NCBI GenBank assembly: GCA_013343275.1
Contig: CP046106.1
Span: 384,001-448,000 of the forward strand
Direction of reading: 5' to 3'
DNA from: Candidatus Nanohaloarchaea archaeon
GTDB taxonomy: Archaea; Nanohalarchaeota; Nanosalinia; Nanosalinales; Nanosalinaceae
Length of the DNA: 64,000 nucleotides
A program made the position numbers and the translations under genes. Shown here one piece after another: positions 46,782-52,066 of this stretch (position 1 is the stretch's first letter; each line of letters opens with the position of its first letter). A model generated the notes under the pieces. That model had not been told where the DNA came from. It did no database searches and saw nothing but the letters and a program-made list of their open reading frames with translations.

Positions 46782-48143
46782 CTAACCTGAATAGGTATAG
46801 GCCAGATCCAGGATCTTCTGCTCCTCGAAGTGATCACCAACGATGTGAAGGCCTGTTGGCATACCCTGGCTTTCTCCGTTAGGTATAGATATCATCGGCA
46901 TGCCAGCAAGGTTAGGCCCTACTGTCAGAGTATCCATCGCGTAGATTTCTTCAGGAGCCATTGATTCGGCCTCTTCGATCTTGGGGGCGATGTTCGGCAT
47001 TGAAGGAGAGATAACAGCATCGTACTCCTCAAACACTTCCTTGTACTGGTCGATTATCTTCTGTCGGACCTTCGCGGCCTTGATATAGTATTCATCCCTG
47101 TAGCCTGCCTGACGGGTATAGGTTCCTAGAAGAATCCTTCTCTTAGCCTCCTCTCCAAACCCTTCTGATCTAACCTCTGAGAAGTATTCATTGAAGTCAT
47201 CGAAATCTTCAGGATCCATCTCCATGCCGTAACGCATGCCGGACATCTTTGCCAGGTTAGTCGAGGCCTCGCTCATCGCAAGAACATAGTAAGCTGGTAC
47301 TGCAACGTCTGCCGAGAGAAGCGGCATATCAACTTCCTCAACAGTAAAGCCTTTCTCCTCCAGCTCCTGGATAGAGGCCCTGAAGTTCTCCATTACTCCT
47401 TCCTCAACTCCTTCAAGTTCAAGGTACTGTTCTGGCACTGCAATTTTGCCTTCTGCTTCGGAAAGGTTCTCGGAGTACTCAGGTACTTCCTTGCTTGACA
47501 TTGTCTGGTCGTTCTCATCTTCACCGGCGATTACCTCCAGACCTTTTGCAACTCCAAAGACTGATTTGGCAAGGACTCCAATCTTGTCAAGAGAGTTAGC
47601 GTAATCTACAAGGCCATAGCGAGAGACTCTTCCATAGGTCGGTGTGATACCGACTACACCATTGTATGCTGCAGGATTGGTGATCGAGCCTCCGGTTGAT
47701 TCTCCCAGAGAGATCAATGGCTGATCCATTGCTGCGACAACTGCTCCAGCTCCTCCAGAAGAACCTCCAACAACTCTTTCTTCATCGTGAGGATTTCTCG
47801 GCGTGTCGAACGCACAGTTAGTGGAGAAAGTTCCAAAGCCGAATTCGTCCTGATTGGTTTTTCCGTAGAAACGGGCGCCGGCCTCCTTCAATCTTTCAAC
47901 TACTGTAGCATCGAATACCGGCCTGTAGTCCTCCAAGATCTTGCTGCCTGCAGAAGTAGTAACTCCTTCAGTACAGATAGCATCCTTCACCACGAAAGGG
48001 ATATTCTGCAGAGAGCCTTCTTTCGTCTCTCCCTGCTTGATCTCTCTCATGAAGCTCAGTTCTTCGTTTCTATCCTGGAGCTCCTGGTAGAATTTTTCGT
48101 GATCTATTTCTTTCTCGCCTTTCAGAACTTTTTCCACAGTCAT
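46782..48143 (-). CDS. gatA: Asp/Glu-tRNA amidotransferase subunit A
   Basis: VKD, GKTN.DEF, GGSSGG, TGGSI, YGRVSRYG, KRRILLGT. Confidence 0.95.
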   Translation of the reverse strand: MTVEKVLKGEKEIDHEKFYQELQDRNEELSFMREIKQGETKEGSLQNIPFVVKDAICTEGVTTSAGSKILEDYRPVFDATVVERLKEAGARFYGKTNQDEFGFGTFSTNCAFDTPRNPHDEERVVGGSSGGAGAVVAAMDQPLISLGESTGGSITNPAAYNGVVGITPTYGRVSRYGLVDYANSLDKIGVLAKSVFGVAKGLEVIAGEDENDQTMSSKEVPEYSENLSEAEGKIAVPEQYLELEGVEEGVMENFRASIQELEEKGFTVEEVDMPLLSADVAVPAYYVLAMSEASTNLAKMSGMRYGMEMDPEDFDDFNEYFSEVRSEGFGEEAKRRILLGTYTRQAGYRDEYYIKAAKVRQKIIDQYKEVFEEYDAVISPSMPNIAPKIEEAESMAPEEIYAMDTLTVGPNLAGMPMISIPNGESQGMPTGLHIVGDHFEEQKILDLAYTYSG

Positions 48144-48194
48144 AGCCAGAGGTTAGGTGAAGAATCTTAAAAATTCAATCTTCAGCACGCCGCA

Positions 48195-48320
48195 CTAATC
48201 TCTCCTAACACAGTCATCGACATGGAAGTTTTTCCCACATGAAGTACATTTCGGAAATAGAGGCCTGTAACCCTGGAAACTCATTTCTCCTCCGCACTCA
48301 GGACATTCCAGATTCATCAT
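48195..48320 (-). CDS. Small CPxCG zinc-finger protein (41 aa)
   Basis: Below ORF-track cutoff; MMNLECPECGGEMSFQGYRPLFPKCTSCGKNFHVDDCVRRD*; TAATG overlap with upstream stop. Confidence 0.7.
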   Translation of the reverse strand: MMNLECPECGGEMSFQGYRPLFPKCTSCGKNFHVDDCVRRD

Positions 48321-48808
48321 TAATCCTCCAGAAGATGGAACTCTATCTCCTCTTCCTTGGTATCAAGTACGGCTACGGAGAAGCCTTCTTCCTGGCCCGG
48401 CAGCCTGATACCACCAGGATTTAACTCCACAGTCTGGCCATCCTCATCGAGCTTTCTCTCGTGGGTGTGGCCCCGGAAAACATAGTCGTAGTTCTTCTCG
48501 ACGAGGCCTTCCACTATCCCCTCTTCGGTTCCATGGTATACTGCTATCTCAAGGTCTTCGATTTCCAGCTCTATTATATTATTGTGGAACTCTCCGAACT
48601 GCTGAACCGTAGATTTCAGGTTCCATTCGCCGTCGTTGTTCCCTCTTACGGCGTAGAAATCAAAACCCCGATCGAAAAGCTCTGCCGTGAACGGCGCGAT
48701 CATATCGCCGCAGTGAACCACTTTTTCCACACGATCATCGAAGAAATCAGCAGCCTTGTCGGCAAGTTCAATACTGTCGTGGGTGTCGGATACTATGCCT
48801 ATTTTCAT
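48320..48808 (-). CDS. YfcE/MJ0936-family phosphodiesterase
   Basis: SDTH, HCGD, GNND, HG, GHTH, NPG. Confidence 0.9.
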   Translation of the reverse strand: MKIGIVSDTHDSIELADKAADFFDDRVEKVVHCGDMIAPFTAELFDRGFDFYAVRGNNDGEWNLKSTVQQFGEFHNNIIELEIEDLEIAVYHGTEEGIVEGLVEKNYDYVFRGHTHERKLDEDGQTVELNPGGIRLPGQEEGFSVAVLDTKEEEIEFHLLED

Positions 48809-48817
48809 CAGTACAGT

Positions 48818-49096
48818 TTAAGCGCTTGGGCCTTTGAAATGGCCTTCTTCCTCGTTTTCCGTGTTGCGGAATACTTCCTCTCTGTCAAGAGTCTCCTCTT
48901 CCTCGTCTTTACGAGTCTTCGAGTCGACATCTACAGGATGGAAGGCAGGTTCTACATCCTCTGTATCTACCTCATCAAGTGATGAGAACTTCTCAAGGAT
49001 GTTATCGAAATCCTCCTTGAACTCCTCGGCCTCACCATCTTCAAGTTTGATCCTTGCATTGTCGGCCACCTTCTTTACTGTTTCAATATCTACCAT
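48818..49096 (-). CDS. gatC: Asp/Glu-tRNA amidotransferase subunit C
   Basis: VA..ARI.L, L.EVDTE.VEP, R.D, G.F..P. Confidence 0.9.
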   Translation of the reverse strand: MVDIETVKKVADNARIKLEDGEAEEFKEDFDNILEKFSSLDEVDTEDVEPAFHPVDVDSKTRKDEEEETLDREEVFRNTENEEEGHFKGPSA

Positions 49097-49319
49097 AGGT
49101 ATTTATTCCGGTTGAAACTTTTAGAAGAATATCGATGAAACACAGCCACAACCTCTATTTCATGTGGAGGGCTGATTATTGAGAGATTTCAGAACCTGTA
49201 AGGCTATTTTAGAGATAATATGAACGGTCGTGAACAATCAGTGTTAACTGCGAGCGAACATCGATTGTATGGCTAAATGGCCGAAGATTTATAAACAAGC
49301 TTAGAAAATGTTAGAGTAT

Positions 49320-49485
49320 AAGACTTGATCGTTGTTCGTGGTGGGACACGAACTGGGATCGATCGTTTCAAACTCATTGGGAAGTGAGTTTGAGTCAGAC
49401 TTGAATTGGGAAGTTCAAGTCGGGAATCGTATTATCGAAACATGTTGGGAATTTGGTTCAATTAGTTCTATCGTAGAATTAGCTT
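49320..49485 (+). ncRNA. GGGA-loop hairpin array (sRNA or ftsZ leader)
   Basis: TTTATAAA at 49288-49295; three hairpins with GGGA in the loop; six GGGA in about 110 nt; ends approximate. Confidence 0.6.
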
Positions 49486-49535
49486 TGCCGCTTTAAAAAG
49501 GTTAGGTTAAGCCTTGCCGGGGGCGGGTCAACACA

Positions 49536-50615
49536 ATGGAATCTATAATCGACAACACGCCAGACTCTCAGAATGAAGGCCAGAATGCCACAGAAAATCT
49601 TGATGATGTAAAAGATGCTAGAATCCTAGTAGTAGGAATAGGAGGAGCTGGCAACAACCAGGTAACCAGAATCCAGAACAAAGAAGTAGAAGGAGCTGAT
49701 ACTGTCGCTATCAACACAGACAAGCAGCACCTAGAGATGTCCTCCGCCGACAGAAAAATACTTGTAGGAAAAGACCTGACACGAGGTCTCGGAGCAGGAG
49801 GAAAACCTGAGAAAGGCGCTCGCTCCGCTGAAGAAAACAGGGCCGAACTAAGAAATCTATTCAAAGAAGCCGACATGGTCTTCCTCACCGCAGGAATGGG
49901 AGGAGGAACAGGTACAGGCGCAGCCCCAGTACTTGCAGAGATCGCAAAGAAAGAGGACTGCATCGTAATCGGAACAGTCACAATGCCATTCAGTATTGAA
50001 GGCGCACGAATGAGCAAGGCAGAAGACGGCCTCTACAAACTAAGACAACATGTCGACACAGCAATCGTAATTGAAAACGACAAACTACTTGATATCGCAG
50101 GCGACATGCCTCTCGACCAGGCATTCGGAGTAGCTGACGAACTGATCACAACAATGATCAAGGGAATCACAGAGACAATCTCCAAGCCTTCACTCGTCAA
50201 CCTGGACTATGCAGATGTCCAGGCAGTAATGAACGAGGGCGGAGTCGCAGTAGTCGGATACGGAGAGTCAGATACAAACAATAAAGGAAAAGAAGCGATC
50301 CATGAGGCCCTCTCCAATCCATTGCTCGATGTAGAGTTCGACGGAGCAAACGGAGCACTACTCCATGTTGCAGGAGGCGAGGACCTGACACTCAACGAGA
50401 TCAACGACGTCGGCCAGCTGGTAACGGACAAGCTCGACAATCAGGCCCAGGTAATCTGGGGCGCACGAATCCGCGACGACCTGCAAGGAAAACTACAGGT
50501 AATCTCAATTATCACAGGCGTGAAATCACCTTACGTCCTGGGAGAACTTGAGGAAGACGAAGAGACCGAGGTAAAAGGAGACGTAAACGACCTCGGACTT
50601 GAAGTCATGAAATAA
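49536..50615 (+). CDS. ftsZ: Cell division protein FtsZ
   Basis: GIGGAGNN, GLGAGG.P, GMGGGTGTG, NLDYAD. Confidence 0.97.
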   Translation: MESIIDNTPDSQNEGQNATENLDDVKDARILVVGIGGAGNNQVTRIQNKEVEGADTVAINTDKQHLEMSSADRKILVGKDLTRGLGAGGKPEKGARSAEENRAELRNLFKEADMVFLTAGMGGGTGTGAAPVLAEIAKKEDCIVIGTVTMPFSIEGARMSKAEDGLYKLRQHVDTAIVIENDKLLDIAGDMPLDQAFGVADELITTMIKGITETISKPSLVNLDYADVQAVMNEGGVAVVGYGESDTNNKGKEAIHEALSNPLLDVEFDGANGALLHVAGGEDLTLNEINDVGQLVTDKLDNQAQVIWGARIRDDLQGKLQVISIITGVKSPYVLGELEEDEETEVKGDVNDLGLEVMK

Positions 50616-50619
50616 ACTC

Positions 50620-50910
50620 GAAAGCCGGAGGCTTTCTGGGTTACCAGAAATTCTCCAAATTTCGAAAAGGCTGGAGATCGGAGATCTTCTGCTTCACAGA
50701 AAATCTCTGATTTTCGGCAAGGAGGCCACCCGGCCTCATTAAACCTATATTACGGAGGAAGGCCTCTACTCGAAAACCCCTCCCCCCCCCTTCGACAGGC
50801 TTTCCTCCCTAAAAACCTATATTTCAACAGGCGAAGGCTACCAAGACCTCCACGCCACCGACAAAAACCCCTCCCCCCCTTTGTTTTGGCGTGGAGGCCA
50901 GCCTTTCGCC
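50620..50910 (+). ncRNA. Multi-hairpin element with two tandem C-rich-loop modules downstream of ftsZ
   Basis: AAACCTATATT followed by a long hairpin with AACCCCTCCCCCCC loop, twice (50741-50808, 50813-50910); strand inferred. Confidence 0.6.
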
Positions 50911-50982
50911 ACTTATTCTCAATTATTTCTTTTCGATCGCTAAACCAAAAAGTTCTTTACAGTTAACAAACAAAACAGAGCT

Positions 50983-51486
50983 ATGAAAGCTGAGAACGAG
51001 GCTATTCTTGGTCTTTCAGGCCTTCTAGCCTTGCTGGTTCCGGTAACTTTCTACACTACTGAAACACCGCTACTGGCAGGACTTTTCTCACTGGCCTCAC
51101 TTGGCATATACAGGTACTGTGACAGAAAGATGGCTATGTCCAGCCTAACCGACCTGGACGAGCTGAAAAGCCTTTATGTTCAGAAAGGTATAGAGGCCAT
51201 TATACTTCTGACTGCTGTTGCATCGCCGGTAGTTGATAAAAATGTCGCGGTATCCGTGCTCCTACTGGTTTTTGTAAGCGAAACCATTCGTGAAGAGGCA
51301 GAAGCTGTCTCGAAGACCGTACTGACATCTTACGCAGGGTTCGAGATCAGGGCAGCAGTCCTAGGTATAGGCATGGTCTTCCAGTCAGTGGCAAGTTACA
51401 GCCTGTTCTATGCGCTTGTTCTGGTAGGAGTCCTGACTGTCTACGAGCTGGGAAGAACTACTCATATCAGCCTGGAAAATATCTGA
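50983..51486 (+). CDS. Hypothetical membrane protein
   Basis: 167 aa with several TMs. Confidence 0.65.
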   Translation: MKAENEAILGLSGLLALLVPVTFYTTETPLLAGLFSLASLGIYRYCDRKMAMSSLTDLDELKSLYVQKGIEAIILLTAVASPVVDKNVAVSVLLLVFVSETIREEAEAVSKTVLTSYAGFEIRAAVLGIGMVFQSVASYSLFYALVLVGVLTVYELGRTTHISLENI

Positions 51487-51562
51487 AGTAGATGGCTTTT
51501 GAGGCGGCTAAATTTTCCTGGCAGCCTCAGGTATTTAATTTTTCACTGCTCCTTCATTAATT

Positions 51563-52066
51563 ATGAAGGCACCAATATGTAACGTCTGCTTGAAGAGCGA
51601 TGTGCTCTGCAGCAGTTGCAAGGAGAAGTACGAGAACGGTGAAATATCCGATCTGGAAATCGAAATCTCAAGGACACTACAGGATTTAAGCAACGAATAC
51701 GGCTCGCTTAGAGACTCAGAAATCAAACACGCATACGACACAGAAAACGTCGTAGTAATCGTCACAGCAGAGGGAGACGGAGCCAAAGTAGTTGGAAGAA
51801 GCGGAGACATCGTCAAGAAACTCGCAGACGAAATCGGCAAATCAATCAGAGTAGTTGAAAAAAGCGAAGACGACAAAGAAGTCATCAAAGGCCTGCTCAG
51901 CCCTGCTGAAATAGAATCAATCAACACAGTTTTCAGCCCTGACGGCCAGTACAAGAAGATCGTCGTCGACGAAGACTACGAAGGAAAGATCAACCTCTCC
52001 AACGAAGAGTTCGAAGAACTAATCGAACAGATCACAGGGGAGAAGTACGAGCTCTCCTTCGAATAA
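51563..52066 (+). CDS. Archaeal NusA-like KH-domain protein with N-terminal Cys4
   Basis: PICNVC...LCSSC; KH GxxG VVGRSG..VKKL. Confidence 0.85.
   Translation: MKAPICNVCLKSDVLCSSCKEKYENGEISDLEIEISRTLQDLSNEYGSLRDSEIKHAYDTENVVVIVTAEGDGAKVVGRSGDIVKKLADEIGKSIRVVEKSEDDKEVIKGLLSPAEIESINTVFSPDGQYKKIVVDEDYEGKINLSNEEFEELIEQITGEKYELSFE

Follow-up and report, generated by a model that had tools for sequence, protein, structure and literature searches.

A conserved single-locus RNA structure with C-rich loops behind ftsZ in Nanohaloarchaea, and its possible partners

Why does the spacer behind ftsZ of a nanohaloarchaeon carry the same C-rich word twice, at the tips of two hairpins with unrelated stems? 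The locus lies in the stretch analysed here (the window), 64 kb of a 915,886-bp single-contig nanohaloarchaeal genome (G000:C1), and the spacer measures 367 nt between the FtsZ open reading frame (ORF; 49536-50615) and the next ORF (50983-51486), with the element beginning past the ftsZ stop codon. There is little doubt that the element is a real, conserved and ftsZ-linked RNA structure: the hairpins exist, their loops are conserved, their stems covary, and the element is single-copy and linked to ftsZ. Most likely it is a structured element of the ftsZ 3′ untranslated region (3′ UTR), or an RNA derived from that region, whose C-loops would bind either a protein or G-rich (GGAGG-type) RNA.

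The window contains exactly two copies of the 14-mer AACCCCTCCCCCCC (50775-50788 and 50866-50879, plus strand), where 0.01 copies are expected by chance and 0/100 shuffles contain two. Its first 13 letters, AACCCCTCCCCCC, find just these two sites in the whole genome. The two C-tracts are direct, not inverted, repeats, and both are hairpin loops in the minimum free energy (MFE) fold of the spacer, which comprises the following features:

50627-50656, 50670-50718 and 50722-50737 (region 50627-50737), plus strand: three accessory hairpins between the ftsZ stop codon and module 1, from the MFE fold.
50741-50751, plus strand: AAACCTATATT motif ahead of hairpin 1, its 3′ UUA pairing with UAA behind the hairpin in the fold.
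50750-50812, plus strand: hairpin 1, 20 pairs, with loop AACCCCUCCCCCCCCC at 50775-50790; match to covariance model R2 (see below) at 50757-50807, 35.6 bits, E 2.5e-6.
50813-50823, plus strand: second AAACCTATATT motif, ahead of hairpin 2 in a single-stranded linker; the linker AAAACCTATATTTCAACAGGC is kept in other genera.
50830-50910, plus strand: hairpin 2, 28 pairs in three helical segments, with loop AACCCCUCCCCCCC at 50866-50879; R2 match at 50844-50906, 25.4 bits, E 0.0012.
50913-50940, plus strand: T-rich tract CTTATTCTCAATTATTTCTTTTCG, a probable archaeal U-tract terminator of the ftsZ unit.

The initial annotation had described two hairpins with unrelated stems and a shared C-rich loop downstream of ftsZ, preceded by smaller hairpins; the 14-mer positions and the MFE fold bear out this description, with three smaller hairpins ahead of the modules. 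The two-module stretch (50736-50925) folds at -63.5 kcal/mol, compared with -33.0 ± 3.5 kcal/mol in 200 dinucleotide shuffles (z = -8.7), and the fold of the whole spacer has a z-score of -9.2 on the plus strand and -5.0 on the minus strand. Compared with a genome of the same genus (G001), hairpin 2 has 6 compensatory double changes in 48 pairs; this pairwise row (G000/G001) was the only one used for double-change counts, as many 'broken' pairs in the other rows are misalignments. No ORF of at least 40 amino acids (aa) with an ATG, GTG or TTG start is present in 50616-50982. A small poly-proline ORF was rejected on this ground, and because the differences in C-run length between species are not multiples of 3.

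A search with the FtsZ protein yielded 36 loci from records titled Nanohaloarchaea or Nanohaloarchaeota, of which 34 were examined and two (L054 and L057) were excluded because their contigs end inside ftsZ. A motif of at least three C, one T or A and at least four C lies within 480 nt behind ftsZ in 31/34 loci, and the C-rich loops are conserved across genera. Three loci lack the motif: the form in L050 is divergent, and the contigs of L051 and L052 stop 5 and 137 nt past ftsZ. In single-sequence folds of 50 motifs, almost every motif is left unpaired inside an enclosing stem. The loci show three architectures: two hairpins as in the window, one hairpin, or a single-stranded C-rich stretch with one branched hairpin. 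The loop consensus is ACACUCCCCUCCCCCC in most genera and CUCCCUUCCCCCC in some first hairpins, and the stems are wholly different between genera. The common loop core, CCCCUCCCCCC, contains the anti-Shine-Dalgarno core CCUCC.

Covariation across genera, a check that the initial annotation had named, was found in the stems. In an arm-swap control with 40 nt on each side of 52 C-motifs, cognate arms gave a mean of -26.8 kcal/mol and non-cognate arms -16.6 ± 5.3 kcal/mol; the cognate arm was the best partner in 21/52, the failures being mostly branched hairpins with a 5′ arm beyond 40 nt. A first covariance model, built from one hairpin of locus L029, recovered 34 hairpins in 35 sources, and the model R2 was rebuilt from those 34. 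R2 finds 50 hairpins in 33/35 sources, L023 and L050 being the two without; every one lies on the ftsZ-sense strand, and the set includes both hairpins of the window. Standard pairs make up 91.8% of the 572 cells of the R2 alignment; shuffling lowers this share to 66.0 ± 1.3%, and sliding the partner lowers it to 60.9% or less. Each of the 14 pairs varies on both sides (164 such cells where 49 are expected), and the covariation score of 0.536 (0.199 in shuffles) was equalled in 0/500 shuffles, controls that overstate the significance because the alignment was fitted to the model structure and the sequences are related. The first-round model agrees. Sequence-only MAFFT alignments (A1-A4) misplace the stems and were excluded from the counts.

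In its own genome, R2 matches these two hairpins alone at E ≤ 1. At E ≤ 0.01 it matches 37/70 genomes of the phylum, with 36/49 in the window's family and 0/20 in four other families, and the 12/12 best whole-genome R2 loci in relatives sit between ftsZ and a gene for a KH-domain protein. Beyond the family, 4/4 ftsZ1 orthologues (L083, L084, L085 and L087) are followed by C-rich-loop hairpins and then a T-rich tract, as seen by eye and in folds. These divergent forms have the loops CCUUUCCCCCAC, CCUUCCCCCACCCCC and CCCUUCCCCC, with AAACCTATATTAG also in L085 and a similar form in L050; L086, which has no downstream DNA, was left out. The second ftsZ paralogue of the genome (C1:654114-655139, 50% identity) is without the element. 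The element is thus lineage-specific, single-locus and linked to ftsZ, family-wide in distribution and present in a divergent form across the phylum.

The genes on either side are annotated as follows:

49536-50615, plus strand: ftsZ coding sequence (FtsZ1-type); Pfam Tubulin 3.9e-46, FtsZ_C 8.5e-32; TIGR00065 8.3e-120.
50983-51486, plus strand: downstream membrane-like ORF of 167 aa outside the element, fast-evolving and without a family match.
51563-52066, plus strand: NusA-like KH-domain protein with an N-terminal Cys-rich (zinc-ribbon-like) segment; Pfam KH_5; NF005013 2.8e-45 (below cut-off).

The KH protein matches the PDB entries 9fjl and 9f9u, both 'NusA' (E 1.8e-19 and 7.6e-18); a search of the available literature gave no publication on either structure. 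Its gene is present in 64/70 genomes of the phylum and lies downstream of ftsZ in 30/36 loci and in 12/12 further loci; it adjoins ftsZ in the window's family and in 0/8 loci of other families. What follows ftsZ and the element is the membrane ORF and then the KH gene in the window's family, the KH gene directly in L049 and L058, and an aIF5A-like gene in L083 and L084. Since the downstream gene differs between lineages while the C-loop hairpins stay, the constant neighbour of the element is ftsZ. The aIF5A-like call (…GKHGHAK…) was read by eye from the sequence, without a check against a family library. A promoter-like AAAACnGTTTAAC, placed behind the T-tract, was seen by eye about 25-30 nt ahead of the start of the downstream ORF in several related loci.

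The accessory hairpins are found in some genera only, and in several genera module 1 stands directly behind the stop codon. Accessory hairpin B of the window bears the palindrome CAGAAAATCTCTGATTTTCGG (GAAAATC-N3-GATTTTC) at 50697-50718, further copies of which lie at G000:C1:512159-512194, 670717-670769 and 802119-802152 and in other genera. At two of the other sites a Shine-Dalgarno (SD) sequence and a start codon follow about 30 nt downstream, and the palindrome may serve as an operator or form a small regulatory hairpin.

On which strand would such an RNA be made? When 47 hairpins were folded with Watson-Crick pairs only, the 1x1 stem mismatches comprised 25 of the G.U type and 9 of the A.C type, the latter being those that would pair on the opposite strand, a count drawn from related sequences. 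A run of at least four T within 35 nt past the last hairpin occurs in 23/34 loci on the plus strand and 17/34 on the minus strand, and a run of at least five in 14 and 7. Archaeal termination takes place at U-tracts, according to a published account (PMC13675443). In several genera the element starts 5-15 nt past the ftsZ stop codon, which leaves no room for a terminator between the two. A comparison of folding energies between the strands was indecisive because G-rich loops pair promiscuously. Taken together, the strand evidence favours, with moderate support, a plus-strand RNA that would form the 3′ end of the ftsZ unit.

A cmscan of 50000-51500 against 4227 Rfam families (E ≤ 10) returned a chance match to the Na+ riboswitch alone (17.5 bits; gathering score 40.5), and the element therefore matches no curated RNA family in that set. 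Two housekeeping RNAs are accounted for elsewhere in the genome, namely the signal recognition particle RNA (Archaea_SRP, C1:197313-197586, 136 bits) and the RNase P RNA (RNaseP_arch, C1:875212-875594, 62.8 bits, below cut-off). A replication origin with origin recognition boxes (ORB) was likewise rejected: some 300 and 240 kb separate the element from the orc1/cdc6 genes (at C1:735.6 kb and 196.2 kb), the C-tracts are direct rather than inverted, and GC skew is uninformative.

The closest likeness is to the cuckoo RNAs of alphaproteobacteria (RSs0680a-d/CcsR1-4, SmelC397), which the initial annotation had put forward as an analogy. As PMC4615179 describes them, these are 2-4 adjacent hairpins with an identical C-rich, anti-SD-like loop motif and variable stems, co-transcribed with an upstream gene. 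In architecture the analogy fits, down to the adjacent hairpins (two here, one or two in relatives, some branched), the variable stems, the position behind a conserved gene and the terminator. In contrast, the element's loops have CCCCUCCCCCC (or CCCUUCCCCCC), with AACCCCUCCCCCCC(CC) in the window, where cuckoo loops have CCUCCUCCC; the host is an archaeon and the element is single-copy and tied to ftsZ, whereas cuckoo RNAs are bacterial and stand behind a DUF1127 gene; and the Hfq dependence and RNase E processing of cuckoo RNAs have no known counterpart for the element. It is therefore an analogue of the cuckoo family and not a relative or member.

Staphylococcal RNAIII and other small RNAs (sRNAs) with UCCC loops use C-rich loops as seeds for G-rich ribosome-binding regions, again according to PMC4615179. 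The element shares with RNAIII the C-rich hairpin loops, but has no homology to it in sequence or structure, a much longer C-tract and a host from another domain of life. Among archaea, the loops of sRNA41 and sRNA154 of Methanosarcina mazei mask ribosome-binding sites, according to the review PMC5867862. Unlike the element, these sRNAs are intergenic, with their own promoters and known regulons, a distinction drawn from their description and without sequence comparison. The element also resembles archaeal U-tract terminators and structured 3′ UTRs in its position at a gene end with a T-rich tract behind it. Unlike generic terminators, which need neither a hairpin nor a conserved loop, its motif occurs once per genome and not at many gene ends. 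A conserved intergenic sRNA of 266 nt in nanohaloarchaea (STRG.4577.1), mentioned in PMC7002113, may or may not be one of the elements flanking ftsZ. Our full-text literature searches found no report of such an ftsZ-linked C-loop element.

From these comparisons the following mechanism may be proposed. Transcription continuing past the end of ftsZ would produce the RNA, with the sense of ftsZ, and would stop at the U-tract just past the last hairpin. The stems, free to vary as long as they pair, would hold the near-invariant single-stranded C-tract CCCCUCCCCCC in the loops; they would also give a stable 3′ end, and the RNA may persist as a 3′-UTR-derived RNA. The exposed C-loops would be the working surface, preferably by pairing with single-stranded GGAGG-type sequences of other RNAs, so that some targets would be expressed in step with ftsZ transcription. 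What we infer here is that the RNA is transcribed with ftsZ, how it is processed and what the loops bind. Pairing is preferred by analogy with the bacterial cuckoo/CcsR RNAs, staphylococcal RNAIII and archaeal sRNAs directed against ribosome-binding sites, and as the role of the loops it may be placed slightly ahead of protein binding. The reading as a whole, loop pairing with G-rich RNA included, is tentative, and we would sooner expect some part of it to fail than all of it to hold.

Several observations weigh against it, beyond the limits on the covariation and mismatch counts given above. The initial annotation had pointed out that CCCCTCC is complementary to GGAGGGG motifs before mre11 and a prenyl synthase gene. 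Both motifs are present, 29 nt ahead of the ATG of the Metallophos (Mre11-like) ORF and 10 nt ahead of the TTG of the polyprenyl synthetase ORF, but the complementarity is within chance, as the window contains 5 copies of GGAGGGG (2 of them the element's own complement) where 7.2 are expected. Extended G-rich SD sequences are rare and not enriched before genes (6 GGAGGGG or GGGGAGG in 591 upstream regions), and of the long G-A-G sites only 5/34 lie before a possible start, several of these being gene-internal. Many genes seem to lack a leader (TATA peak at -30), which limits SD-directed control. In favour of the reading, some genes do use a GGAGGTG-type SD, with GAGG and GGTG peaking at -16 to -10. 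The C-run lengths vary by species (4+9, 4+7, 7+6, 5+5+7), so that a protein site or a loose seed fits as well as a defined duplex. In addition, the RNA search returned a single metatranscriptome run (X1, 0.05 word share), the material of which is one 242-nt contig over 49300-49539 with none over the element, and which allows no conclusion on expression.

The target scan that the initial annotation had suggested came out negative, with no enriched or conserved G-rich partner in 8351 candidate start regions or in the searches for the complement and for G-A-G sites. Elsewhere on the plus strand the exact complement, GGGGAGGGG, has one copy, inside a 3′ hairpin at C1:102085, and sites with at most one mismatch are patternless. 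In the crude scan of start regions, orc1/cdc6-B ranked first (-23.2 kcal/mol) and orc1/cdc6-A fifteenth. The former was rejected as a conserved target, which also counts against pairing, since the G-run ahead of its start is kept in 5/30 family loci; the latter was rejected because its region carries ORB-like G-strings, a DNA-level feature. The ftsZ mRNA itself was rejected as a partner: its best match to the C-loops falls on the Gly-codon run that encodes the GGGTGTG signature (near nt 341-350 in most loci). This is the most G-rich spot, the match contains an A.C mismatch, and it was judged trivial. The ftsZ 5′ UTR is G-rich in the window's genus only. The proposal of the initial annotation, a trans-acting sRNA derived from the 3′ UTR or a platform for a poly(C)-binding protein, stands as far as a structured, RNA-level element on the C-rich, ftsZ-sense strand at the ftsZ 3′ end is concerned (conserved loops, covarying stems, strand indicators), and is weakened in that the best predicted trans target is not conserved (5/30 loci).

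Two side observations concern the orc1/cdc6 loci. Upstream of one such gene (C1:735618-736823, minus strand), at C1 ~736,830-737,300, three ORB-like copies of CTCCACAyGAAATCAGGGGGTG, one of them inverted, surround an A/T-rich stretch, which is probably the replication origin. In orc1/cdc6-B orthologues (L100-L121), repeated ACCGGAAC/GCGGAAC words flank a TATA-like box, CTTTTAAACTA, before an apparently leaderless start in most genera, and these words may be an autoregulatory site of orc1/cdc6-B.

Among the alternatives, the one that survives best is that the C-tract loops bind a C/U-binding protein, for example the NusA-like KH protein encoded two genes downstream, which would control stability, termination or read-through at the ftsZ end or would be titrated in the manner of CsrB. 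Protein binding in several registers is well served by a pyrimidine tract that is conserved and single-stranded, varies in length and sits on one or two hairpins, the KH gene stands downstream in the loci counted above, and the synteny of ftsZ and the KH gene shares its family distribution with the form of the element that R2 detects. Archaeal NusA prefers CU-rich RNA. The binding of RNA by archaeal NusA is described in PMC8116511, and PCBP-type KH proteins are known from published abstracts to recognise C-rich RNA. In other families, however, the KH gene is not a neighbour of ftsZ; it has a promoter of its own and is not preceded by a C-loop element, while the C-loop hairpins still stand behind ftsZ; the linkage is thus not obligatory. 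Because the KH idea rests on synteny in one family, we commit ourselves to a C-loop recognition surface, with RNA pairing slightly ahead, and regard a protein platform as possible but rather unlikely.

A second alternative looks to the region upstream of ftsZ, where a further array of hairpins was found:

49285-49500, plus strand, between gatC (48818-49096, minus strand) and ftsZ: G-loop hairpin array, with a strong TATA-like GATTTATAAAC at 49287-49297 followed by 3-6 hairpins.

The stems of the array are variable and the conserved loop is UUGGGAA, UUGGGC(A) or GGUGGGAC. The rot mRNA offers UUGGGA loops to RNAIII, which resemble the UUGGGAA loops here. GGG-loop hairpins number 118 in 37 loci and 0 in antisense or ftsZ coding-sequence controls; the array is a single locus in its own genome and is also found in other families, in one of which (f5) the loops are UUGGCG. 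No real Rfam match was obtained in 48000-50000 at E ≤ 10. The array may be either a long ftsZ leader or a separate sRNA. The 242-nt contig from X1 is 90-95% alike, and its span is exactly the G-loop element as far as the start of ftsZ. It hints weakly that the array of a relative is present in RNA, with carry-over of DNA as a possible source. The blocks GTTCTAAGGTAGAATTAnCTATnCCG and CTTTAAAAAGGTTAGG (window 49440-49510) are highly conserved about 35-70 nt ahead of the ftsZ ATG in nearly all 37 loci; they may represent either an ftsZ promoter together with an operator or a portion of a leader hairpin. A TATA-like CTTTAAAAAGG (about 49495-49505) lies between the array and ftsZ.

The C-loops could be a cis partner of this 5′ region, contacting the (U)UGGGC(A)/UUGGGAA loops by GGG:CCC pairs or through a bridging protein and thereby controlling translation or stability of the ftsZ mRNA. 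In favour of this stands the array itself, which, being present in other families and single-locus like the C-loop element, means that G-loops and C-loops bracket the same gene throughout the phylum. The complementarity, however, amounts to 3 nt (GGG/CCC), the best C-loop site in the ftsZ transcript is the Gly-codon run and not the leader, and in f5 the C-loop stays C-rich where the upstream loops are UUGGCG, which shows no covariation; moreover, the TATA-like CTTTAAAAAGG may mean that the array is a separate transcript. We consider such a contact improbable.

More doubtful still is that AAACCTATATT is a promoter, with a B recognition element (BRE) and a TATA box, and that each module is an sRNA gene with its own transcription unit. 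A/T-rich AAAAnnTATATT-like motifs do precede 32/50 of the R2 hairpins (an ATATT-like word within 30 nt upstream), and in the window genome three other hairpins separate ftsZ from module 1. By itself the 11-mer AAACCTATATT, with one mismatch allowed, is within chance (1.02 expected; 24/100 shuffles reach 2). The promoters of the window's genome are of the TTTAAAA type, both at tRNA genes and in the -30 peak ahead of ORFs, and TATATT is rare, 591 upstream regions yielding 18 copies. The AAACCTATATT motif lies against the base of the hairpin, 2-8 nt away, is replaced by ATGTTA or ATGCTA in some genera, and pairs through its last bases with UAA(AA) in the 3′ flank. A start about 22 nt on (~22-25 nt downstream of AAACCTATATT) would remove the covarying 5′ arm, which makes the promoter reading unlikely. 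A weak or atypical promoter at AAACCTATATT is possible; the motif may instead extend the stem with A/U-rich sequence or serve as a site of processing or protein binding.

That the opposite strand is the functional one, giving an antisense RNA whose G-rich loops (GGGGGGAGGGG, a 'super-SD') would bind the 3′ end of 16S rRNA or C/U-rich RNA, is very unlikely. The minus strand folds too (z = -5.0) and has runs of at least four T behind the hairpins in half of the loci (17/34), but G.U-type mismatches outnumber the A.C type by 25 to 9, the z-score is better on the plus strand, T-runs are missing from the minus side in lineages whose C-rich leader is single-stranded and, by eye, the interval from the last hairpin to the promoter of the downstream gene is too short to hold another promoter. 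Least likely of all is a mere terminator hairpin of ftsZ or a DNA-level element (a protein site, an origin-related G-string or a cruciform) with no regulatory role as RNA. Hairpins followed by a T-tract do stand at the gene end, but termination does not require a loop that is invariant across genera on stems that covary; the element is found at no other gene of the genome, GC skew is uninformative, orc1/cdc6 and the ORB-like repeats lie elsewhere, and the G.U pairs speak for RNA.

RNA-based regulation in DPANN archaea, and the control of division in these host-dependent cells, are matters about which very little is known, and the present locus contributes two concrete RNA families to them, with a covariance model, coordinates and loop motifs. 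The kind of element is known, as a C-rich-loop riboregulator or 3′-UTR element; the family and its context are new, and the function is a prediction from sequence. Its convergence with the C-rich-loop riboregulators of bacteria is striking. A bolder possibility, to which we attach little weight, is that ftsZ1 is bracketed by two phylum-specific RNA modules, a 5′ array of 3-6 (U)UGGGC(A)-loop hairpins behind a strong TATA box and the 3′ CCCCUCCCCCC-loop hairpins, which would form a post-transcriptional switch of FtsZ through loop contacts or a shared protein. If true, the two modules would constitute a division checkpoint of an obligate ectosymbiont that has no described archaeal counterpart. 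If the loops act on translation or on a KH protein, the element would be an example, of which literature searches returned no earlier report, of riboregulation linked to cell division in archaea.

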